A stretch of 7,902 bases of DNA from a virus (IMGVR_UViG_2541047498_000013), one strand, 5' to 3'. Counted from the stretch's first letter, positions 1 to 7,902 are shown. Numbers and translations: made by a program. Notes: a model not told the origin generated them from the sequence alone.

Positions 1-121
1 CGCCAGATTCGGTTTTAAACGTTTTGCTTTTGGTATACGTCATCGCGGTGAATGTACCGTCCTGGTTGGGAAACACGCCGTACACCAGAGATTCGTTGTT
101 GCCAAGATCGATAGTATCCAT
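1..121 (-). CDS. Small phage protein, 5' end only (first 40 codons in window; gene continues beyond the left edge); possibly YdfA/DUF1391-like
   Basis: Minus-strand ATG at 121..119 preceded by GAGG about 5 nt upstream; open frame to the window edge reading MDTIDLGNNESLVYGVFPNQDGTFTAMTYTKSKTFKTESG. Too short for the supplied ORF track. Family name is from memory of small Qin/Rac prophage proteins and is uncertain. Confidence 0.55.
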   Translation of the reverse strand, partial: MDTIDLGNNESLVYGVFPNQDGTFTAMTYTKSKTFKTESG

Positions 122-313
122 GTTGACCTCATTTCCCCTTAACGCCGGGTAGCGGAACAAAAACCTGCTGCATAGTTATTAAAGTTGAACCCTGCCGTCA
201 TGTTCATACGCCTCGGGCTGGCTACTTACCCCCTGACCACTGCTTGGTAACTCGAAGTATTGCCCGGCGTTCTGTGGGGCGGGGTGGGTGGTTGGTGTAT
301 GTAATCTACAATA

Positions 314-341
314 AAAAACTGTTTTTGTGTCAACAGTTTTT
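314..341. promoter_or_regulatory. Palindromic operator-like site (left operator candidate): AAAAACTGTT-N8-AACAGTTTTT
   Basis: Perfect 10-bp inverted repeat read directly. The 16-mer ACAATAAAAAACTGTT at 308..323 is repeated exactly at 1343..1358. A TTGACA hexamer (minus strand, 333..328) lies inside the palindrome. Confidence 0.6.
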
Positions 342-354
342 AATTGTTGTTTTG

Positions 355-381
355 GGCAAAAAAATCCCTCGAAAGAGGGAG
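355..381 (-). terminator. Candidate Rho-independent terminator downstream of the ParE-like gene (minus strand)
   Basis: On the minus strand: stem TCCCTC / GAGGGA (365..370 pairs with 375..380), 4-nt loop, then a run of 7-8 T (plus-strand A run 357..364), starting 18 nt after the toxin stop codon. The stem is short (6 bp), so strength is uncertain. Confidence 0.5.
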
Positions 382-398
382 TATGAAAATTGTTCAAC

Positions 399-686
399 TC
401 AGATAGAGAAGGGAAATTGTCGCCGAGAATGTGTCACGCTTACAATCTCAATGCTTGAAGCAGCTACTCTGTACAGGATTATGTAGTTAGGGTGGGTCAC
501 GATCTCTCTCAATCCAGAAACCCGTTCGCTTGGTGGATATAAGTACGGATGCTCAGATAGAGGTAATACCGATGTTTCAATGCGTATTTTTAGTCTACGT
601 GCTGCCGGTGGGTTCTCCTTGGCGATGTAAGTTATGATCTGGCGCAAATCATCGCGAGCAGACGGTAGCCATAAAATGGGTAACAT
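399..686 (-). CDS. parE: Type II toxin, RelE/ParE superfamily (ParE2-like, gyrase-poisoning family)
   Basis: 95-aa ORF beginning MLPILWLPSARDDL and containing LPLSEHPYLYPPSERVSGLREIVTHPNYIILYRV, which I recognise as ParE-family motifs. Its ATG overlaps the upstream antitoxin stop by 1 nt (TAATG), the typical toxin-antitoxin coupling. Confidence 0.8.
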   Translation of the reverse strand: MLPILWLPSARDDLRQIITYIAKENPPAARRLKIRIETSVLPLSEHPYLYPPSERVSGLREIVTHPNYIILYRVAASSIEIVSVTHSRRQFPFSI

Positions 687-877
687 TACTCGCTCTTGTT
701 AGTTACAGCAATTTGAGCAATAAGATTTTCCATTTCAGCCATTACCTCGTCATGTGGAATTGCGGGGCGAGTGTCTGCAAGGCTTGACGTTACTTTAGTG
801 CGCAACCATTCGTTGTAACTGTTTTCTTGTTCGGTAGTTTCGAATTCTGAAACTATCGGAGAAAGGGCTGTACCCAT
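686..877 (-). CDS. paaA2: Type II antitoxin, PaaA2-like (small antitoxin partner of ParE2-type toxins)
   Basis: 63-aa ORF with SPIVSEFETTEQENSYNEWLRTKVTSSLADTRPAIPHDEV, recalled as closely resembling the 63-aa PaaA2 antitoxin. AGAGGAG Shine-Dalgarno 7 nt upstream of the ATG; sits immediately upstream of and overlapping the toxin. Confidence 0.75.
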   Translation of the reverse strand: MGTALSPIVSEFETTEQENSYNEWLRTKVTSSLADTRPAIPHDEVMAEMENLIAQIAVTNKSE

Positions 878-904
878 GGCATAACTCCTCTTCTTGTACT
901 GTGG

Positions 905-1306
905 TCACGCCCGGCGGCTTTTTTGTGCCGCCAGCCACCTAGCAATGGTTTCTTCCATTGATTTTTTCTTGTCTTTGATTTCTTGAAGCATTTTTTCTTG
1001 GTCTTCCTCAGGAAACGCACTAAAAGCTTGGAGCAGTTCGCGTTGGCGAGGACCAATTTTCATCGTGTCAGGGGTGAAAATTTGCTCACACTCTTCAGGA
1101 GGCAATAAAAACCAATGCAATGGATGCCCTGAAACCTCAACCAGTTTATCCAAACTTGAGGCTTTAGGTGTAGCCTTACCGCTGACCCATTGTTGAACAG
1201 TTTGTTGTGTCACACCAATTCTACGGGCAAGCTCAGCCTGGCTCCATCCAGTTTCCTGAAGAAGCTTGCTGATTCTGTACATAGATACTTCTAGGGCGCT
1301 CATCAT
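905..1306 (-). CDS. paaR2: XRE-family HTH transcriptional regulator, CI-like prophage repressor / PaaR2-like regulator of the toxin-antitoxin operon; no LexA-type peptidase domain seen
   Basis: 133-aa ORF with HTH motif WSQAELARRIGVTQQTVQQWVSGK; no GDSM-type S24 protease motif in the C-terminal half. First gene of a leftward three-gene cluster, divergent from the Cro-like gene. Start uncertain: ATG at 1306 has no Shine-Dalgarno (possibly leaderless); in-frame ATG at 1282 would give MYRISKLL. Confidence 0.75.
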   Translation of the reverse strand: MMSALEVSMYRISKLLQETGWSQAELARRIGVTQQTVQQWVSGKATPKASSLDKLVEVSGHPLHWFLLPPEECEQIFTPDTMKIGPRQRELLQAFSAFPEEDQEKMLQEIKDKKKSMEETIARWLAAQKSRRA

Positions 1307-1347
1307 TATTCAATTTTACAGGTAAATACTGTTAAAAGCATCACAAT

Positions 1348-1376
1348 AAAAAACTGTTGATTGCATACAGTTTTTT
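1348..1376. promoter_or_regulatory. Palindromic operator-like site (right operator candidate) in the divergent regulator / Cro-like intergenic region: AAAAAACTGT-N9-ACAGTTTTTT
   Basis: Perfect 10-bp inverted repeat sharing an exact 16-mer with the 308..341 site. Lies in the 108-bp gap between divergent regulator genes, where a lambdoid right operator would sit; a TTGATT -35-like hexamer is at 1358..1363. Confidence 0.6.
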
Positions 1377-1414
1377 ATTGTAGGCTTTGCTTATAGTTTT
1401 TAGAGGAGGGCAAA

Positions 1415-1687
1415 ATGCTAGATAGCACTCGCGAAAAAATTAGGCAGAAATACACTCAGGCTGAAATAGGTCGTTATATGGGGGTCGCTCAACAGACTGT
1501 TTGGCAATGGTTTAGCTTTGGCGTTCCCCCAAAGCAGGTAATTCCGTTATGCCAACTAATGAAGTGGGAAGTTACCCCGCATGAAATCCGCCCAGATATT
1601 TATCCTAACCCAACCGACGGTTTACCTGTTGGATGTAAGGTTAACACATCAAATGCGCCGGAGTTGATTCATGAAAATCAAGCATGA
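1415..1687 (+). CDS. ydaS: Cro-like HTH regulator (YdaS-family)
   Basis: 90-aa ORF with AGAGGAGGG Shine-Dalgarno 4-5 nt upstream; HTH segment QAEIGRYMGVAQQTVWQWF; divergent from the CI-like gene and overlapping the YdaT-like gene by 17 nt. Symbol by analogy to the Rac prophage locus, not by verified identity. Confidence 0.7.
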   Translation: MLDSTREKIRQKYTQAEIGRYMGVAQQTVWQWFSFGVPPKQVIPLCQLMKWEVTPHEIRPDIYPNPTDGLPVGCKVNTSNAPELIHENQA

Positions 1688-2096
1688 ACACATCCGCATG
1701 GCGATGAATGCCTGGGCGCATCCGGACGGCGAAAAAGTACCGGCTGCGAAAATTACCAAAGCGTATTTCGAGCTGGGAATGACGTTCCCGGAACTGTATG
1801 ACGACAGCCATCCGGAAGCCATGGCTCGCAATACTCAGAAAATTTTCCGCTGGGTGGAGAAAGACACTCCTGATGCGGTTAAAAAAATTCAGGCGTTGTT
1901 ACCAGCGATCGAAAAAGCGATGCCGCCTCCGCTGGTGGCCCGAATGCGCAGCCACAGTTCCGCTTATTTTCGGGAGTTGGTAGAGACGAAGGAACGGCTG
2001 GTGAAAGATATTGATGATTTCGTTGCATCAGCGATCGTTCTGTTCGATCAGATGAATCGTGGTGGCCCGGCAGGAAACACTCTGGCTGTGCATTAA
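1671..2096 (+). CDS. ydaT: YdaT-family protein (CII-like regulator; historically annotated as a putative toxin)
   Basis: 141-aa ORF beginning MKIKHEHIRMAMNAWAHPDGEKVPAAKITKAYFELGMTFPELYDDSHPEA, which I recognise as near-identical in pattern to Rac prophage YdaT. Position directly downstream of the Cro-like gene matches. Confidence 0.8.
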   Translation: MKIKHEHIRMAMNAWAHPDGEKVPAAKITKAYFELGMTFPELYDDSHPEAMARNTQKIFRWVEKDTPDAVKKIQALLPAIEKAMPPPLVARMRSHSSAYFRELVETKERLVKDIDDFVASAIVLFDQMNRGGPAGNTLAVH

Positions 2097-2109
2097 TTGG
2101 GTAATAAAT

Positions 2110-2619
2110 ATGAGTAATGACAAAAAATTGACACTGAGCGTTTACGAAAACAGTCCGCACATCTGGCGTGGCGGTTTATCTGATGTGGAGCTGGCAGAGT
2201 GGTTGATACATAAAGCTAATGCGCTGCTCTGGCGTTTGTCAGCCAGAGAACAGCGCAAGGAAACCAGAATAAAGCTGGCTGATGCAGAAGCGTGTGCCGG
2301 GCTTATTGAGGATTATACAAATCTTGGTATTTCTTCAGCAGAGAGTGATCCCATTCAGCCTCTGAGCAGGGAGTCAATCCAGCACGCTGGTTGTATGGCA
2401 CATCTTGTAACTGCTCGTCAACATGAGGTGGGTATTGGATCACTTCCGGCGGGATATTCGCTGATTCCAGAGCTGGTTGAAGCAAGAAAATCAGTTCAGA
2501 AAAAGAGAGATGACGCACTTCAATTATTGAGAGAGCACTATGGCGCGATACCAGAATGCGAACAGCGTCGATACCCTGAAGGTTATGAATGGATGCAGTC
2601 TCTTTTTGAAGTTCGCTAA
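2110..2619 (+). CDS. Hypothetical phage protein (169 aa from ATG 2110; the ORF is open from 2059)
   Basis: Long ORF in the same orientation as the flanking early genes. Start chosen at MSNDKKLTL (ATG 2110), 14 nt after the ydaT stop; no strong Shine-Dalgarno. No family recognised. Confidence 0.55.
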   Translation: MSNDKKLTLSVYENSPHIWRGGLSDVELAEWLIHKANALLWRLSAREQRKETRIKLADAEACAGLIEDYTNLGISSAESDPIQPLSRESIQHAGCMAHLVTARQHEVGIGSLPAGYSLIPELVEARKSVQKKRDDALQLLREHYGAIPECEQRRYPEGYEWMQSLFEVR

Positions 2620-2836
2620 TCAATATGTCGAGACGAAGGTATGTTTCGGCGCGCAGCCAGGCTCTGTAATCCGGGAGCATTTCGGGGCTGTTACACCAGC
2701 GGTTTGTTGCTGCAACATTTAATACATGAGCCTGATAAAGGCTTTTCAAAAAATACATGTCGAACCTCCTCTGGTTCTGTCGATTGGGAACCACAGATTA
2801 TATCCGGAGGAAGGTTCGGCACCAGATGAGGTAGCC

Positions 2837-3928
2837 ATGCGTGATTACGCAAAAGTTTCTCCGCGATTCTGGCTGGGAGAAACGGGGAGAGAACTTAGAA
2901 AGGCGGGTGCAGAAGCGCAAGTTGTTGCTTTTTACCTGATGACATCCCCTCACGCAAATATGCTGGGTTTGTATTACCTGCCAGTTTTATACCTTGCTCA
3001 TGAAACCGGGCTTGGTCTGGAAGGGGCTTCAAAGGGGCTTAAAAGGGCTGTTGAAGCTGGTTTTTGTAGCTATGACCATGATGCAGAGATGGTCTGGGTC
3101 CATGAAATGGCAGCCTGGCAGGTTGGGGAAACGTTGAAGCCTGGCGATAACCGTTGTGCAGGTGTCAGGAATGAGTATGCATCATTACCTGAAAACGCTT
3201 TTCTGTCAGTGTTTTACGACAGATATAAAACGGATTTCCATCTGGATGTGAGGCGGAATAATAGCCGAAATTCGGTAAGGGGCTTCGAAGGGGCTTTTAA
3301 GGGGCTTCGAAGCCAAGAACAGGAACAGGAGCAGGAGAAAGAACAGGAACAGGACAAAAACACTATGGTTCATGGCAAAAAAAACACCACGAACCAGGCA
3401 GGGGATGTTCAGACCGTCAATCCTGGTCAGCCAGCAGGCACGACACCGGAAGCCGATTCGGGCGCTGTGCAGCAGGTGATGACCGCAGGGTCGGAGCAAT
3501 CACACCAACTGCAGCAGCCTGAAGCCGATTCCGCCATTCAGCGGGAAGCCGATCGGGTAGTCCCGGAAAGCACCGGGCAGTCTGTGGGACGAGTGGATTA
3601 TCCGGATGTGTTCGAACAGGTCTGGCGGGAATACCCGTTGCGTGCTGGGGCAAACCCGAAGAAATCCGCTTTCAGTGCCTGGAAGGCCAGATTGCGCGAG
3701 GGGGTGCCACCAGAGACCATGCTGGATGGTGTGAGGCGTTACGCGAGATACCTGGCGGCGACCGGGAAAGCGGGAACGGAATTTGTTCAGCGAGCGACGA
3801 CGTTTTTTGGGCCGGACCGGAATTTTGAAAACCCCTGGTTGCTCCCGGTAAGCGGCACGAACAACCAGCGTTGTGTGAATCATATTTCTGAACCGGATAC
3901 CGAAATTCCGCCGGGATTCAGGGGGTGA
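2837..3928 (+). CDS. Phage replication initiation protein (lambda O-like / Rac YdaU-like role), with internal repeats and a QEQEQE low-complexity linker
   Basis: Long ORF immediately upstream of the DnaC-like loader gene. Start taken at ATG 2837 (MRDYAKVSPRFWLGETGREL) with GAGG 5 nt upstream; the ORF is open from ATG 2726 but that codon has no Shine-Dalgarno. Internal AAGGGGCTT repeats and A-rich tract are consistent with an origin embedded in an initiator gene. Confidence 0.65.
   Translation: MRDYAKVSPRFWLGETGRELRKAGAEAQVVAFYLMTSPHANMLGLYYLPVLYLAHETGLGLEGASKGLKRAVEAGFCSYDHDAEMVWVHEMAAWQVGETLKPGDNRCAGVRNEYASLPENAFLSVFYDRYKTDFHLDVRRNNSRNSVRGFEGAFKGLRSQEQEQEQEKEQEQDKNTMVHGKKNTTNQAGDVQTVNPGQPAGTTPEADSGAVQQVMTAGSEQSHQLQQPEADSAIQREADRVVPESTGQSVGRVDYPDVFEQVWREYPLRAGANPKKSAFSAWKARLREGVPPETMLDGVRRYARYLAATGKAGTEFVQRATTFFGPDRNFENPWLLPVSGTNNQRCVNHISEPDTEIPPGFRG
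3021..3049. repeat. Iteron-like direct repeats, cluster 1: AAGGGGCTT x2 plus AAGGGCT at 11-bp phasing
   Basis: Copies start at 3021, 3032 and 3043 (read directly); they encode the GLEGASKGLKRA segment of the initiator. Confidence 0.5.
3277..3308. repeat. Iteron-like direct repeats, cluster 2: AAGGGGCTT x3 at exact 11-bp phasing
   Basis: Copies at 3277..3286, 3288..3296 and 3299..3308, immediately followed by a GAACAG-type hexanucleotide repeat and an A-rich tract. Confidence 0.55.
3316..3355. repeat. Imperfect hexanucleotide tandem repeat (GAACAG/GAGCAG units) encoding QEQEQEQEKEQEQ
   Basis: AGAACAGGAACAGGAGCAGGAGAAAGAACAGGAACAGGAC read directly; followed by an A-rich stretch to about 3390. 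Confidence 0.6.
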
Positions 3929-3934
3929 TGTGGC

Positions 3935-4681
3935 ATGAAAAACATTGCGGCAGCCGGGGTTCTTGAACGTATTCGCAGACTTGCACCACAGGCGTCGGTT
4001 CCACCGTACCGGACGGTGGAGGAGTGGCGGGAATGGCAACTTGCTGAAGGACGAAAACGCAGCGAGGAGATTAACCGCCAGAATCACCAGTTGCGGGTGG
4101 AAAAAATCCTGAATCGTTCGGGCATCCAGCCTCTGCACAGCAAATGCTCGTTTGCGAATTATCAGGTGCAGAACGACGGGCAAAAATACGCGCTGAGCCA
4201 GGCCAAATCCATAGCTGACGAACTGATGACCGGGTGCACGAATTTTGTGTTCAGCGGTAAAACCGGCACCGGGAAAAATCACCTTGCAGCGGCGATGGGT
4301 AACCGGCTGATGGCGAAGGGGCGCAGCGTGATTATCGTCACCGTGTCTGATGTCATGAGCGTGTTGCATGACAGCTACGACAACGGCAAATCCGGGGAAA
4401 AATTTTTACAGGAGCTTTGCAGTGTTGATTTGCTGGTCCTGGATGAAATAGGCGTTCAGCGGGAGACGAAAAACGAGCAGGTGGTATTACACCAGATAAT
4501 TGATCGCCGGACAGCATCACTGTGCAGTGTCGGGATGTTAACAAACCTGAATCATGCCGCAATGAGTACACTTCTTGGTGAGAGGATTATGGACCGCATG
4601 ACCATGAACGGTGGTCGATGGGTGACGTTTAACTGGGATAGCTGGCGTCCAAATGTCAGCAATATGAGGGTTGTGAAGTAA
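3935..4681 (+). CDS. DnaC-like replicative helicase loader (AAA+ ATPase; Rac YdaV-like)
   Basis: 248-aa ORF with Walker A GKTGTGKNHLAAA and Walker B LLVLDEIG, and overall DnaC-like layout. GGGGGTGATG Shine-Dalgarno-like sequence upstream; starts 7 nt after the initiator stop. Confidence 0.85.
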   Translation: MKNIAAAGVLERIRRLAPQASVPPYRTVEEWREWQLAEGRKRSEEINRQNHQLRVEKILNRSGIQPLHSKCSFANYQVQNDGQKYALSQAKSIADELMTGCTNFVFSGKTGTGKNHLAAAMGNRLMAKGRSVIIVTVSDVMSVLHDSYDNGKSGEKFLQELCSVDLLVLDEIGVQRETKNEQVVLHQIIDRRTASLCSVGMLTNLNHAAMSTLLGERIMDRMTMNGGRWVTFNWDSWRPNVSNMRVVK

Positions 4682-4702
4682 TTTTGTCCGGAGGAAATTT
4701 TA

Positions 4703-5419
4703 ATGGAAACCGTATCTGACGCACTGAAAGCACTGAAAAGAGCCTCTTCACATGTGGTGGCAGCTCGCCTTGGAATTAGTCGTGAAGAGGCTGTCAACGA
4801 ACTGTGGAAACTGAAACGCCGTGGAGAAGCGGATAACAAGGGGGCGATATGGTGGCTGACTCAGGCTGGTGAAAGTGAACCGGTGTCACCGGTACCGAAA
4901 GTGACGGCGCAAATGCTGACAGAGGCGATTGAACAACATGGCCCACAAACGGCGGATGAACTGGCATTGATGTTCGGAATTACCTCCCGCCGGGCGAATT
5001 CATCGCTGGCAATGGCAATCAGCAAAGGGTGTCTGATTCGCGTGAATCAGGATGGTAAATTTCGTTACTGCATACCGGGCGTTGATTTACCGGCAGAGCC
5101 GAAAGCAGCATCCGTAGCTGAAACGGAGGGTAAAGCCCTTCCTCAGCCAGCTGGTGTTGCGTTACCAGTCCAGGAAACGGCTGCACAGGAAGAAATTAAA
5201 ACAGAAGCGGTGGAGGACATTGTGAAGTTGCAGCAATCGTTCACTGAAGCGAAAGCAGATGACCTGATTCTACCATCGCTGCATGTGGCTAACCGCGAGC
5301 TGCGCCGGGCGAAAAGTAATGTTCAGAAGTGGGAGCGAGTCTGTGCTGCGCTACGGGAACTGAACAAACACAGGGATATTCTCCGGGATATTACCGCCAC
5401 CAGAGAGCAGCAGCGGTGA
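4703..5419 (+). CDS. Hypothetical phage protein with two predicted winged-helix-like segments and a C-terminal coiled-coil-like region (possibly DUF1627-like)
   Basis: 238-aa ORF with GGAGG Shine-Dalgarno 7-8 nt upstream. Segments [25 protein letters not shown] and [27 protein letters not shown] look like HTH / winged-helix motifs. The DUF name is from memory only. Confidence 0.6.
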
Positions 5420-5733
5420 GTGGCTGGAAGAAGTGGCGCTGGGCTGAAATCCTGATACTCCGGCAGTGTGCGGGAACGATGAGAGTCGAAAGCATCGGTT
5501 ATCTGATTGGCCGTAGTGAGTCAGCCGTCAGGACGAAAGCGCGGGAACTGGGTATCAGCATGATGTTACGGGGTGATTATCACCAGTCAGCCAAATGTTC
5601 ACAGCGTGATATTGAGCTGGCGTGGCAACTGCATCAGCGTGGTGTACCCCGACGGGAAATTGCCGAAAAGTTTGGGATGAAGTTGGGCGCAGTGAATAAC
5701 TACGTTTATTTCGACAGGAGGGTTCAGGAGTGA
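5416..5733 (+). CDS. Hypothetical small DNA-binding protein (two HTH-like segments)
   Basis: ORF open from 5329. Start placed at GTG 5416, which overlaps the upstream stop (GTGA) with a GAGAG Shine-Dalgarno-like sequence 8 nt upstream; ATG 5479 is an alternative. Contains [21 protein letters not shown] and [22 protein letters not shown]. Confidence 0.5.
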
Positions 5734-6032
5734 GGGTGAGGGTTTATATCGCCGGTCCGATGACGGGATATGAAAATTTTAACCGCGAGGCATTTCACAA
5801 AACGGAAGAGGTGCTGAAACGGGAAGGGCATACCGTTTTAAACCCGGCAGTACTTCCGGACGGGCTGACTCAGCCACACTACATGGATATTTGCATGGCA
5901 ATGCTCCGTTGCGTGGATGCGGTTTACATGCTGAAAGGCTGGCAGCAGTCGGCAGGTGCAGGGGCTGAGCTGGCACTGGAGGAGAAACCGGGCCATGCGG
6001 TGATTTTTCAGGAGGTGGGCAGTGAATATTGA
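5730..6032 (+). CDS. DUF4406-like protein (nucleoside 2-deoxyribosyltransferase-like fold)
   Basis: 100-aa ORF beginning RVYIAGPMTGYENFN and continuing HTVLNPA...YMLKGWQQSAGAGAELALEE, which I recognise as the DUF4406 / NDT-like signature. GTG start overlaps the upstream stop (GTGA); GTG 5736 with AGGAG 5 nt upstream is an alternative start. Confidence 0.7.
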   Translation: MRVRVYIAGPMTGYENFNREAFHKTEEVLKREGHTVLNPAVLPDGLTQPHYMDICMAMLRCVDAVYMLKGWQQSAGAGAELALEEKPGHAVIFQEVGSEY

Positions 6033-6339
6033 CCCGGCGATAACGATTGATATGGCCCTGAACGCCGGCCTGGCACTTCTTGGTTATTTCTACATTATGT
6101 TCTGCAGCGGACGATGGCTGTCACTGTTGTTCATGAAAAAATGGAATAAACGCCGTAAGCAGGAGCAACGCCAGAAGGCAATGGATGCATTTTTCGAAGC
6201 CTTCGGAATTGACGGCATGGAACCAGGGGATCCAGCTCGCGCAATCAGCAGAGGGGGTGTAGTAATCCTTGTATATCGGAGTGAAGAGAAAAATGACGAT
6301 CACAAAACAACGTGTAGAAGAAATCATATCCCGCATTGA
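6022..6339 (+). CDS. Small predicted membrane protein (one hydrophobic helix followed by a basic KKWNKRRKQEQRQK stretch), function unknown
   Basis: GTG start with AGGAGGTG Shine-Dalgarno 5 nt upstream, overlapping the end of the DUF4406-like gene by 11 nt. Hydrophobic segment MALNAGLALLGYFYIMFCSGRWLSLLFM. A 71-aa antisense ORF (6121..6336) is considered less likely. Confidence 0.5.
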   Translation: MNIDPAITIDMALNAGLALLGYFYIMFCSGRWLSLLFMKKWNKRRKQEQRQKAMDAFFEAFGIDGMEPGDPARAISRGGVVILVYRSEEKNDDHKTTCRRNHIPH

Positions 6340-6610
6340 AATGTATGGACATGGTGCAGGGTATATCGCAGACGAGGTTAATGATCTGGCTATACTGGCG
6401 CTGAATTTATCAAATATCGCGAACCTGAAGCGATACGAGCTTGATATGGGAGGTTGCGACTCGTGCGGTCAGGATTGTGGCGCTGATATGACTGAAGATC
6501 CTGATGGTGATTATGTCCTGTTTGATGACGTGGTTAAGTTGTTTGAATTTGATACAACCACTCAAAAGTTAGAAATCCCGGCAAAGGAGGCAGCCAGTGG
6601 GCAAGATTGA
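6293..6610 (+). CDS. Hypothetical acidic phage protein with a Cys cluster (CDSCGQDCGAD)
   Basis: ORF open from TTG 6269. ATG 6293 (MTITKQRVEEI) chosen; start uncertain because no strong Shine-Dalgarno. Overlaps neighbours on both sides in a different frame. Confidence 0.5.
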   Translation: MTITKQRVEEIISRIEMYGHGAGYIADEVNDLAILALNLSNIANLKRYELDMGGCDSCGQDCGADMTEDPDGDYVLFDDVVKLFEFDTTTQKLEIPAKEAASGQD

Positions 6611-7034
6611 CTATCAGGCACTGCGTGAGGCAGCACAAAACTATCAATCGACGCTGGCGTGGTATCAGGCTACCCCGGACAGCCCAAATGCTGAACGGGA
6701 TTGTGATGCGGCTCTTGCTGCGTTTAAGCGTCACATCCGTCATCGGGAAGCGGATATTATCGCTGATTTGCTGGATGGACTGGAAGAAGCAAAATCACAA
6801 CTCAACGAGCAGCGTGAGTATTACGAAGGCGTTATCTCTGATGGGAGCAAGCGTATTGCTGAACTGGAAGCGCGGGAAGTTCAATTACCGACTCGCTACG
6901 ACCTTCGATATGGACACCCGATAAATGCAGATGAGCGACATGTCATGATACCTAAAGAAAATGGCAGTTGGCTTTACCTGATTGACCTAGAACACGCATT
7001 ACGCGTCGCTGGCATTCGCATCAAAGGAGAGTGA
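6597..7034 (+). CDS. Hypothetical phage protein (145 aa) with a predicted central coiled-coil-like region
   Basis: GTG start with AAGGAGG Shine-Dalgarno 6 nt upstream; overlaps the upstream gene by 14 nt; stop overlaps the next gene's Shine-Dalgarno. Confidence 0.6.
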   Translation: MGKIDYQALREAAQNYQSTLAWYQATPDSPNAERDCDAALAAFKRHIRHREADIIADLLDGLEEAKSQLNEQREYYEGVISDGSKRIAELEAREVQLPTRYDLRYGHPINADERHVMIPKENGSWLYLIDLEHALRVAGIRIKGE

Positions 7035-7035
7035 G

Positions 7036-7227
7036 ATGAACGGACAAATATCAATTGTTCGACCAGGAGCATGTGACGATCGCGAAATACGAATGATTAT
7101 TCGTCTGGCGATGGGGAAAACAATAACTGCTCTCATTACTCCAGAAAATCTCGCATTAGCATTAACAGGAAAGTCAGACATGCCAGTAGAGCTAAAGCTG
7201 CGAAATGTTGAGATTAAGGTGAAATAG
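7036..7227 (+). CDS. Hypothetical small phage protein (63 aa)
   Basis: ATG with AAGGAG Shine-Dalgarno 6 nt upstream, 1 nt after the upstream stop. Confidence 0.6.
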   Translation: MNGQISIVRPGACDDREIRMIIRLAMGKTITALITPENLALALTGKSDMPVELKLRNVEIKVK

Positions 7228-7229
7228 CT

Positions 7230-7787
7230 ATGACCACTATTACCAAAGATCGACTGCTGACAATCCAGCATTGGCGCGAAACATACGGACCGGGTAGCAA
7301 CGTTGTGCTTCCAGCAGAAGAAGCGGAAGAGCTGGCACGGATTGCGCTGGCATCACTGGCAGCAGTATCGGATGAACGAGCAGCCTATGAATTATTTATG
7401 GAGAAGCGTTTCGGAGAATCTGTAGATCGCCGCAGAGCAAAAAATGGCGATAGAGATTACATGGTATGGGATATGGCGCTTGGCTGGATTATCTGGTGTC
7501 ACCGCGCCGCCATGCTTCAGGCTGGAAACTTTCGGGAAAATAAGGGTTCGTCAACCAATAATTTTCGGGAAATCTCGGAAACGTCAACCAACTATCCGGC
7601 AATCCCTGATGAGGTGTTGTCCGCAATCCTGAAGGTCGCCAGGCTTCGTGCAGATTTCGATGCTTCTGAAGTGGACAGGCGAGGTATCGGTAGTTGTCTG
7701 GATGAGGCCGAGCAAGAACTTATCGTTACCATTAACGAATACGCCAGTCAGATCGCAGTAGAAGCGACACAGGGGGAGAACCAATGA
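7230..7787 (+). CDS. Hypothetical phage protein (185 aa)
   Basis: ATG 2 nt after the upstream stop with AAGGTG 7-8 nt upstream; long ORF co-oriented with the cassette. No family recognised. Confidence 0.6.
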   Translation: MTTITKDRLLTIQHWRETYGPGSNVVLPAEEAEELARIALASLAAVSDERAAYELFMEKRFGESVDRRRAKNGDRDYMVWDMALGWIIWCHRAAMLQAGNFRENKGSSTNNFREISETSTNYPAIPDEVLSAILKVARLRADFDASEVDRRGIGSCLDEAEQELIVTINEYASQIAVEATQGENQ

Positions 7788-7861
7788 GCCGGCCAGATGC
7801 ATTTGCAGGCGTTGCTATAGCTATTGCTTTTCTAGTATATGTTATTTGTCGGTGGGGGTAA
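7784..7861 (+). CDS. Unannotated 25-aa hydrophobic peptide (MSRPDAFAGVAIAIAFLVYVICRWG), predicted single-pass membrane peptide
   Basis: ATG overlaps the upstream stop (ATGA) and is preceded by GGGGAG 6 nt upstream. Below the length cut-off of the supplied ORF track. Hydrophobic core AGVAIAIAFLVYVI. Confidence 0.45.
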   Translation: MSRPDAFAGVAIAIAFLVYVICRWG

Positions 7862-7896
7862 AAACGTTCGCCGGGATTCACACCAAGGGAGGGAAT

Positions 7897-7902
7897 ATGT
7901 CG
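7897..7902 (+). CDS. Start of a further rightward gene (only 2 codons in window)
   Basis: ATG at 7897 preceded by AAGGGAGGG 3-4 nt upstream; truncated by the window edge. Confidence 0.35.

Follow-up and report, generated by a model that had tools for sequence, protein, structure and literature searches.

Eight closely packed small genes as the probable filling of a variable accessory slot in a Rac-like lambdoid prophage

Gene layout and junctions

The window analysed here is a stretch of 7,902 nucleotides, and the run under study (positions 5416-7861) consists of eight tightly packed small genes, p1 to p8. Its left neighbour, outside the run, is a 238-amino-acid DUF1627 gene (4703..5419; Pfam DUF1627, E 2.3e-81). 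All features of this stretch described below lie on the plus strand. A reading of the sequence alone had reported that every junction either overlaps or leaves at most 2 nt, and this observation is confirmed for all eight junctions, where stop and start codons overlap or abut at distances of -47 to +2 nt. Every junction was verified in the nucleotide sequence and in the list of ORFs. The p1 start, GTG at 5416, shares bases with the TGA that ends the DUF1627 gene (GTGA), and the GTG of p2 at 5730 overlaps the p1 TGA at 5731-5733 in the same way (GTGA). The GTG of p3 at 6022 lies 11 nt inside p2, whose stop is at 6030-6032; the ATG of p4 at 6293 lies 47 nt inside p3, which ends at 6339; and the GTG of p5 at 6597 lies 14 nt inside p4, which ends at 6610. 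A single nucleotide separates the p5 TGA (7032-7034) from the p6 ATG (7036) and two separate the p6 TAG (7225-7227) from the p7 ATG (7230), while the p8 ATG at 7784 overlaps the p7 TGA at 7785-7787 (ATGA). The starts of the first seven genes are identical in the RefSeq annotation of a 99.7%-identical E. coli O157:H7 prophage. Two starts, 6269 and 6293, had been offered for p4; we keep 6293 and drop 6269 because the RefSeq start and an end-to-end alignment with PHROG 3126 agree on it.

The proposal that the run forms one translationally coupled operon is plausible. Co-transcription and coupling across 5416-7861 are suggested by the single coding strand, the overlapping or nearly touching codons, the lack of any plus-strand promoter-like site in a simple consensus scan of 4600-7902, and a simple scan of the same interval that returned a single weak terminator-like site, within p3. 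The rest of the operon, as seen in an O157 relative (L001), is looser, with spacings from small overlaps to gaps of 245 nt. The tightness of the junctions is nonetheless generic: it is the same whichever partner adjoins and is independent of this gene order. Other partner combinations give equal distances, of -4 or -14 nt (p2 to p5), -14 nt (p3 to p5), +1 nt (p5 to p7) and -4 nt (p7 to p8), and a DUF977-like gene in place of p1 likewise overlaps the p2 start by 4 nt.

The encoded proteins

The products of p1 to p7 all match PHROG families (E ≤ 1e-24). Pfam and PHROG searches found no structural or lysis role among the proteins of the run, in agreement with the sequence-only reading.

The first gene, p1 (5416..5733; 105 aa; PHROG 323, E 1.8e-24), is predicted to encode a DNA-binding protein with two helix-turn-helix units. 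Its Pfam helix-turn-helix matches are all below their cut-offs, the best being Sigma70_r4_2 at 21.2 bits against 25.7. The AlphaFold model (pLDDT 76.5) shows two three-helix units, and Foldseek returned no match reaching E 0.001, the weak ones being bipartite helix-turn-helix DNA-binding domains. NCBI names the homologues 'DNA-binding protein'.

The DUF4406-like protein that had been recognised by eye is p2 (5730..6032; 100 aa), which matches Pfam DUF4406 at 115.1 bits against a cut-off of 22 (E 2e-33) as well as PHROG 355. From its structure model (pLDDT 87.8) it is predicted to be a compact member of the nucleoside 2-deoxyribosyltransferase (NDT)/DNPH1 fold. The top 30 PDB fold matches are NDT, DNPH1, MilB and one unnamed conserved protein, at probability 1.00 and TM scores of 0.66-0.75. 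Across 30 homologues Y6, D53, S74 and E80 do not vary, and the placing of this Tyr, Asp, Ser and Glu set may resemble that of the catalytic residues of DNPH1.

A DUF4752 protein is encoded by p3 (6022..6339; 105 aa; Pfam PF15944, E 7.5e-39, 132.1 bits against a cut-off of 27). It is probably membrane-anchored, because a single N-terminal hydrophobic segment is followed by a basic stretch; the Kyte-Doolittle maximum over 19 residues is a borderline 1.54, at residues 11-29. The overlapping p4 (6293..6610; 105 aa) aligns over residues 1-105 with positions 1-105 of PHROG 3126 (E 2.5e-66). With 22 aspartate and glutamate residues against 8 lysine and arginine residues it is acidic, as are p5 and p7, and its N-terminal ~80 residues are paralogous to the N-terminus of p7 (BLASTP, 32% identity, E 2e-6). 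It had been described as a Cys-cluster protein, a label that does not hold: the cluster is not conserved, because its middle Cys is Phe in several homologues. Homologues of p4 are present in virulent Salmonella siphophages, and in several phages the adjoining genes are annotated Eae or Ea22.

Three members had been called unknowns, which understates what can be said of p5 and p6. An Ead/Ea22-like protein is encoded by p5 (6597..7034; 145 aa; Pfam Ead_Ea22, PF13935, 51.4 bits against a cut-off of 27, E 2.2e-13). It is built of an Ead/Ea22 N-terminal segment, a helix-rich middle and a C-terminal domain that differs from that of lambda Ea22; since p5 has no match at E ≤ 0.2 among PDB sequences, this domain does not match the solved lambda Ea22 one. 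Breakpoints of similarity inside the gene, at 6760-6850, coincide with the domain border. The product of p6 (7036..7227; 63 aa; PHROG 1222, E 1e-40) is 93.7% identical to HkaF of phage HK620. A 134-kb myovirus and Dhillonvirus phages have homologues too, and p6, like p4, is found in virulent phages.

The largest member, p7 (7230..7787; 185 aa), is a chimera that carries the N-terminus and conserved core of the 'DUF551 protein' family. A Pfam scan found no match in p7, DUF551 (PF04448) included; in the alignment it ends, in a helical segment, short of where its relatives carry DUF551. It shares 95% identity with O157 DUF551 proteins over residues 1-132 and 96% with another group over residues 37-185, and the family alignment shows N- and C-terminal modules to be exchangeable. 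Two 33-nt tandem copies (7527..7591; repeat family D1), encoding NFRENKGSSTN and NFREISETSTN, form the linker from the core to the C-terminal module, flanked by breakpoints at 7480-7510 and 7600. The run closes with p8 (7784..7861), a 25-aa hydrophobic peptide (Kyte-Doolittle maximum 2.12) of a conserved family of 25-27-aa membrane peptides. It has no annotation in the O157 RefSeq record. Across 38 distinct DNA variants its ORF stays intact, and the peptides fit the pattern M.WPEAF...ICRWG. In each of 11 distinct p7-p8 junction contexts it shares 4 nt with the gene before it.

A variable slot between two anchors

The eight genes occupy a slot between a left anchor, formed by the replication genes and DUF1627, and a right anchor, formed by p8 and, in relatives, by hokD, DUF968, RusA and Q after it. 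Both L001 and the prophage of E. coli 20.1 (L002) carry hokD, DUF968 and RusA to the right of the slot, and L002 carries Q as well. DUF1627 and p8 recur with many different fillings. The E. coli 20.1 prophage is the most direct example, having the same immunity genes, replication genes, DUF1627 and downstream genes around a slot that holds mainly DUF977, DUF4014 and others; the only likeness there is between a short DUF551 ORF and part of p7. The whole window is a three-part recombinant, and a crossover of two parental prophage lineages falls in the 5′ end of the DUF1627 gene, where similarity blocks of L002 type and O157 type overlap at 4681-4816. Exchange follows gene boundaries and common N-terminal segments: of 957 similarity breakpoints, 63% are no more than 30 nt from a junction, where 19% would be expected. 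The slot genes are promoter-less and small, they are exchanged singly or as domain-sized pieces, and each recurs in many other contexts.

The distribution of the genes does not support a novel multi-gene system, since the eight do not travel together. Loci were gathered separately for each gene from its best 80 matches, and near-duplicates were merged only if identical. The complete order is confined to ~10 near-identical O157-type contigs (L003-L013) out of ~500 related viral loci; elsewhere the genes are found singly or in different pairs. The neighbourhood counts come from loci that are partly related and not phylogenetically independent, and within 3 kb they give p3 or p4 near p5 in 5 of 37 cases, p3 near p4 in 14 of 42, any other gene near p6 in at most 6 of 27 and any other gene near p7 in at most 13 of 35. 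The commonest arrangements are p4 alone (31), p6 alone (23), p7 alone (16) and DUF1627-x-p2-p5 (14). Each gene has 7-16 sequence contexts upstream and 4-23 downstream, the downstream count omitting p3 on account of a bias in how its loci were chosen. Some part of the run is present in 2539 of 5426 complete E. coli genomes, and at least 80% of it in only 287 of them; the top of the matches listed consists of O157-type strains. Components that co-occur in a kept order across diverse genomes, as a multi-gene system would have, were not found. The order of the eight genes is a product of clonal descent within a single prophage lineage and not of functional linkage, and the run is a shuffled set of independently mobile phage accessory genes that already have annotations in hundreds of E. 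coli O157 genomes.

Interpretation and alternatives

Very probably the run is what fills a variable slot for accessory genes, situated in the rightward early operon of a Rac-like lambdoid prophage. Transcription would reach the slot genes from an early promoter ahead of the replication genes, and translation would pass from gene to gene by coupling or re-initiation where stop and start codons overlap, which would be why the junctions stay tight whatever the neighbours. Each product may then act alone, on the host or on phage development. Ranked by support, the likely roles begin with p5, a putative oligomeric protein of the Ea22 type; such proteins bias lambda and Stx phages towards lysogeny and away from lysis. 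Next come p2, which by its modelled fold may be a small enzyme with nucleosides or nucleotides as substrates, either an N-glycosidase or one resembling deoxyribosyltransferases, and p1, which would bind DNA through its two modelled helix-turn-helix units. They are followed by p3 and p8 as likely small membrane proteins and, last, by p4, p6 and p7 as likely accessory proteins.

The sequence-only reading had favoured a functional cassette, that is, eight genes forming one co-adapted system for host takeover, anti-defence or exclusion that requires joint expression. This is now highly improbable. All eight junctions do overlap or nearly touch, and the order is kept at 99.5-99.7% identity in the 287 genomes, but the same tightness arises with other partners, and the 287 genomes hold near-identical copies beyond which the genes separate freely. 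Co-occurrence largely refutes such a system, and a prophage with the same backbone fills the slot differently. PADLOC, too, matched no defence-system component at E ≤ 0.1 in nine proteins. Two findings had been named in advance as counting against the cassette. One, that the genes do not co-occur across genomes, was made; the other, that every member has a characterised housekeeping function, was not. Overall, the earlier interpretation of the run is partly supported. Smaller units, either DUF1627-p1-p2 as a replication add-on or p3-p4 as a membrane protein with an acidic partner, fare somewhat better and are still improbable. Close p1 homologues (≥79% identity) follow DUF1627 in 36 of 36 cases and precede p2 in 35 of 36, and the order DnaC-DUF1627-p1-p2 recurs. 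At 62-68% identity, however, the p1 homologues of Salmonella, Pantoea and Citrobacter adjoin neither DUF1627 nor DUF4406. The Salmonella and Pantoea homologues belong to a leftward operon, with exonuclease VIII or RecT on one side and xis/int on the other, and the Citrobacter ones lie downstream of exonuclease VIII/RecT and xis/int. Moreover, a survey of DUF4406 across 80 other species found DUF1627 nearby in none and p1 in two, both in the opposite order, and the position of p1 is often held by an unrelated DUF977-like gene. As for the second pair, p3 is followed by p4 in 31 of 40 neighbourhoods, and each of 37 distinct junction contexts has the 47-nt overlap, but p4 occurs without p3 in 28 of 42 neighbourhoods and in virulent phages, and p3 without p4 in at least six arrangements.

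A different possibility, unlikely but the least so of the alternatives, is that unlinked genes make the slot an anti-defence or counter-defence island, several of them each neutralising a different host immune system. The acidic p4, p5 and p7 could be mimics of proteins or DNA, and p2 could destroy a nucleotide signal or a modified nucleotide, a role that its predicted DNPH1/NDT fold with invariant candidate catalytic residues would suit. The genes also sit in early operons, and the layout is that of accessory regions that are reportedly enriched in counter-defence genes (bioRxiv 10.1101/2023.04.06.535777). Against this, a comparison that contained no anti-defence library found no homology to characterised anti-defence proteins, and Ea22, the sole relative with experiments, acts on lysogeny and not on immunity (PMC7093339). 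A literature search found no defence link for DUF4406, DUF4752 or DUF1627, and for DUF551 it yielded one paper, which only mentions a phage MazZ pyrophosphohydrolase that contains DUF551 and counteracts host restriction.

Comparison with known systems

At the level of single proteins, p2 shares the fold of the NDT/DNPH1 (Rcl)/MilB superfamily at TM 0.7-0.75, but these structures have 125-165 residues against ~100 in p2, and sequence identity is 12-23%. The closeness of p6 to HkaF links it to the early-left hka genes of HK620, from which the run differs in operon and gene order. Genes of the Ead/Ea22 and HK620 hka types usually belong to the leftward early operon. The corresponding exo-xis ('ea') region of lambda and Stx phages shares the Ead_Ea22 signature with p5, and in the leftward early operon of PhiR49_2 a run of homologues of p3, p4, p5 (Ea22) and p6 is flanked by cI and xis/int. 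The present run differs in lying in a rightward operon after the replication genes and in lacking the orf60a/61/63/73 set. Ea22 favours lysogeny (PMC7093339), and the Ea22 proteins have a mosaic build in which C-terminal domains can be exchanged, unrelated ones being accepted within the family (PMC10834534). Lambda Ea22 has 182 residues against 145 in p5, and the C-terminal domains do not match.

The CPS-53 cluster yfdQ-yfdR-yfdS-yfdT of E. coli K-12 also consists of small cryptic-prophage genes, including that of the DUF551 protein YfdS, and its overexpression alters host replication initiation and stress tolerance (PMC4776307). YfdS has a DUF551 domain, whereas p7 has none, and the YfdQ and YfdR domains, DUF2303 and HD, are absent from a Pfam scan of nine proteins. 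The sequence-only reading had likened the run to the lambda nin region (P/ren to Q). The likeness holds for place, downstream of the replication genes and, in relatives, upstream of hok, DUF968, RusA and Q, and for tightly packed, small, non-structural genes. It does not extend to gene content, as none of the eight proteins has a Pfam match to nin families (NinB, NinE, NinF, NinG, NinH and others).

The closest general counterpart is the phage accessory region, a described feature of phage genomes in which variable genes lie between conserved flanks (Silas et al., bioRxiv 10.1101/2023.04.06.535777). That survey covered isolated phages, whereas the present genes belong to a prophage. The likeness lies in the conserved flanks, here the replication genes and DUF1627 on one side and p8 with hok/DUF968/RusA/Q on the other, and in the small, exchanged, variable content. 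With such content between conserved flanks and with exchange among unrelated phages, the region 5416-7861 is an ordinary phage accessory region.

Setting of the run

The window comes from a Rac-like lambdoid prophage, of which it spans the immunity and early-right region. Minus-strand genes for a 95-aa toxin of the ParE/RelE type and a 63-aa antitoxin of the RelB type (399–877) lie directly beside a cI-like repressor gene (905–1306), also on that strand. The plus strand carries YdaS-like and YdaT-like genes, an O/DnaT-like gene (2726–3928), a DnaC-like ATPase gene (3935–4681) and a DUF1627 gene (4703–5419), directly after which begins a run of eight small plus-strand genes, p1 to p8 (5416–7861). 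The O/DnaT-like replication protein contains a Glu/Gln-rich low-complexity stretch (window about 3290–3350; QEQEQEQEKEQEQDK). Between the YdaT-like gene and the O-like gene, the rightward early operon contains a minus-strand gene (2303–2758). In a relative its RefSeq name is ‘ECs1072 family phage-associated protein’, and an overlapping 186-aa plus-strand ORF (2059–2619) is probably not a gene. Downstream of the run, relatives carry a 34-aa hypothetical ORF, hokD, DUF968, RusA and Q. The 34-aa ORF is the one that begins at ATG 7897 in the window, with a strong ribosome-binding site ahead of it (7885–7902; AAGGGAGGG).

Gene junctions and expression signals

The sequence-only reading had taken the run for one tightly coupled cassette, possibly an undescribed functional system. 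The junctions on which it drew are all found on the sequence: GTGA overlaps at 5416 and 5730, overlaps of 11 nt at 6022, 47 nt at 6293 and 14 nt at 6597, gaps of 1 nt before 7036 and 2 nt before 7230, and an ATGA overlap at 7784. Two starts had been proposed for p4; ATG 6293 stands and TTG 6269 does not, since the 105-aa form and PHROG 3126 align over their full lengths. In an O157:H7 prophage integrated beside potC, 99.7% identical over the run, the RefSeq starts of genes 1–7 are identical. PHROG families match all seven of these proteins (E <= 1e-24).

A consensus scan of 4600–7902 found no plus-strand promoter-like site and one terminator-like site, a weak one, and Rfam gave no match to a known non-coding RNA in the whole window (E <= 1). 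The prophage Pas sRNAs, tied by a paper to DUF1627 neighbourhoods, were set aside as candidates; these map elsewhere, beside the genes for holin, lysozyme and esterase. Junction distances are constant across partners: −4 or −14 nt from p2 to p5, −14 from p3 or p4 to p5, +1 from p5 to p6 or p7, and −4 from p7 to p8. The tight junctions are real but generic. They are the way in which promoter-less genes pack into a read-through operon, and are no evidence that these eight genes belong together.

Linkage among the genes

Co-occurrence was sampled in up to 80 best-matching IMG/VR loci per gene, seeded separately on p1–p7, and all window proteins were then searched against every fetched locus. Partners were scored only in loci seeded on the gene in question, a second gene being counted if within 3 kb. 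Taking the 80 best matches per gene biases the sample toward relatives of the window, and linkage should therefore be inflated, not hidden. This check did not support the idea of the cassette as a system: the full eight-gene order is confined to about ten near-identical O157-type contigs among these loci, and elsewhere the genes separate. The window's exact p7 allele occurs in one contig only (L005). From p5, p3 or p4 was reached in 5/37 neighbourhoods; p6 had any given other gene nearby in at most 6/27 and p7 in at most 13/35. The commonest arrangements are p4, p6 or p7 alone and DUF1627-(other gene)-p2-p5, and each gene occurs in 7–16 distinct sequence contexts upstream and 4–23 downstream. 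Among 5426 complete E. coli genomes, 287 hold at least 80% of the run and 2539 hold some part of it.

Closer association was seen for p5 with p2 (37/37 neighbourhoods) and for p1 with DUF1627 (36/36) and p2 (35/36). The DUF1627-p1-p2 trio was considered as a conserved module and rejected, as it falls apart among more distant homologues. In an alignment-based survey of DUF4406, the family of p2, covering one genome per species in 80 species, DUF1627 was near the DUF4406 gene in none of the 80 and p1 in two, both times downstream of p2, not upstream; a DnaC-like gene lay within 6 kb in eight. Homologues of p1 at 62–68% identity adjoin neither DUF1627 nor DUF4406. Those of Salmonella and Pantoea are flanked on one side by xis/int and on the other by exonuclease VIII, RecT or other early-left genes; in Citrobacter, exonuclease VIII and RecT lie upstream. 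Many E. coli loci have, in place of p1, an unrelated ∼135-aa DUF977-like gene with a stop that, like that of p1, overlaps the start of p2 by 4 nt (1699–2106 in locus L286; 5588–6004 in L108).

Mosaic structure of the window

Exchange is concentrated at gene borders. In nucleotide comparisons of the window with the loci, 63% of 957 similarity endpoints lay within 30 nt of a junction (19% expected), as did 48% of the 117 distinct endpoint positions. The remaining clusters fall at domain borders: at 6760–6850 in p5, after the Ead_Ea22 N-terminal segment, and at 7360, 7480–7510 and 7600 in p7, the latter two flanking a 33-nt tandem repeat. Apart from this repeat, only short, chance-level internal repeats were found, and these were discarded as recombination sites.

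The window itself is a three-part recombinant, and no complete E. coli genome contains as much as 80% of it. Positions 1–4816 are 96.2% identical to a prophage of E. coli 20.1, positions 4681–7611 match the O157:H7 potC prophage at 99.8% identity, and a third lineage supplied 7611–7760, the p7 C-terminus. The first crossover falls within the 5′ end of the DUF1627 gene. In the E. coli 20.1 prophage the backbone on either side of the slot is shared, with mostly DUF977, DUF4014 and other genes between; its sole match to the run there is a short DUF551 ORF against part of p7. Related genes also occur in other settings. Phage PhiR49_2 carries a p3-p4-Ea22-p6-like run in a leftward operon between cI and xis/int, and in Uetakevirus PAS61 related genes come after the replication genes. 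Homologues of p4 are present in virulent Salmonella siphophages, and p6 (7036–7227), 93.7% identical to HK620 hkaF, is also found in Dhillonvirus phages and a 134-kb myovirus.

Products of the individual genes

The p1 (5416–5733) family numbers 158 clusters in a 5.8-billion-cluster database and appears restricted to Enterobacterales, the one exception being a metagenome bin with the label Acinetobacter. The family's NCBI name is ‘DNA-binding protein’, and matches to Pfam HTH families are sub-threshold. Its AlphaFold model (pLDDT 76.5) has two three-helix units, with weak Foldseek matches, all to bipartite HTH DNA-binding domains. Sequence searches for solved-structure relatives of p1, p2, p5 and p7 returned nothing meaningful, and PADLOC and NCBIfam scans of the run's proteins added nothing (no usable NCBIfam match).

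A Pfam DUF4406 protein, p2 (5730–6032) has a model (pLDDT 87.8) that matches nucleoside 2-deoxyribosyltransferases, DNPH1 and MilB at TM 0.7–0.75. Residues Y6, D53, S74 and E80, which may be the counterparts of the DNPH1 catalytic residues, are invariant among 30 homologues. From the model, p2 may be a minimal (about 100 aa) enzyme of the DNPH1/deoxyribosyltransferase fold with invariant candidate catalytic residues. Such an enzyme could benefit the phage by hydrolysing a nucleotide, either modified or signalling, in counter-defence or in nucleotide-pool remodelling. Its homologues occur in Enterobacterales prophage early regions and in Vibrio, Shewanella and Aeromonas genomes.

p3 (6022–6339; DUF4752) has a single hydrophobic segment followed by a basic stretch, and p4 (6293–6610) is acidic. 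Neighbourhoods of p3 include p4 in 31/40 cases, and those of p4 include p3 in 14/42. This pair, with its fixed 47-nt overlap, is a second effector candidate, and might form a membrane-anchored two-protein exclusion or counter-defence module. The readings of p4 as a ‘Cys-cluster’ protein or a zinc-binding one were rejected: there are three Cys only, the middle one being Phe in several homologues. The N-terminal ∼80 aa of p4 (6293–6540) and p7 (7230–7470) are homologous (32% identity, E 2e-6); one N-terminal module has therefore been joined to different C-terminal parts in the same slot.

p5 (6597–7034) carries the Pfam Ead_Ea22 signature above threshold, and its C-terminal domain gave no match to the solved lambda Ea22 domain in a sequence search. 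Ea22 proteins are tetrameric, lysogeny-favouring and mosaic, with exchangeable C-terminal domains that include DUF551 (PMC7093339, PMC10834534). The p7 (7230–7787) family is likewise modular, with a variable N-terminus, a conserved core (residues ∼38–125), a repeat linker and alternative C-termini. The allele in the window has a helical segment at its end and no DUF551 domain, and p7 was therefore not counted as a DUF551 protein. Its tandem repeat, two 33-nt copies at 7527–7591 (NFRENKGSSTN / NFREISETSTN) with breakpoints on either side, looks like a linker between exchangeable modules.

The last gene, p8 (7784–7861), encodes a conserved 25–27-aa peptide, predicted to be transmembrane, with the pattern M.WPEAF...ICRWG in many prophages. 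The ORF stays intact across 38 different DNA variants, and its 4-nt overlap with the gene before it is constant, whichever gene that is. It is unannotated in the O157 RefSeq record examined (L001). p8 is the right-hand anchor of the slot.

A probable accessory-gene slot

We consider it very probable that the run is what currently fills an accessory-gene slot, one of the type described as phage ‘accessory regions’. The anchors are fixed and the content between them varies, exchange occurs at gene and domain borders, and each gene is distributed independently. Transcription would read through from an early promoter, overlapping genes would be translationally coupled, and every product would act independently. 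The eight-gene order is put down to clonal inheritance within one prophage lineage. That one slot member, not the cassette, is a new kind of effector is improbable; p2 is the best candidate. Every member but p8 has an existing Pfam or PHROG family, and the arrangement can already be found, annotated, in public genomes.

What this does, for the most part, is clear away a false lead: tight packing in a phage early operon cannot be taken as evidence for a functional system. In practical terms the gain is modest, a well-delimited EHEC-type prophage slot with DUF1627 as left anchor and an unannotated micropeptide as right anchor. With fixed anchors on both sides, the slot is therefore convenient for harvesting accessory genes to screen. 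The individual genes of chief interest are the DUF4406 mini-enzyme, the Ea22-like protein, whose relatives affect Shiga-toxin prophage lysogeny and induction, and the conserved p8 micropeptide. Most of the genes in the slot are of the Ead/Ea22 and hka type, which is well known from leftward early operons in lambda, Stx phages and HK620.
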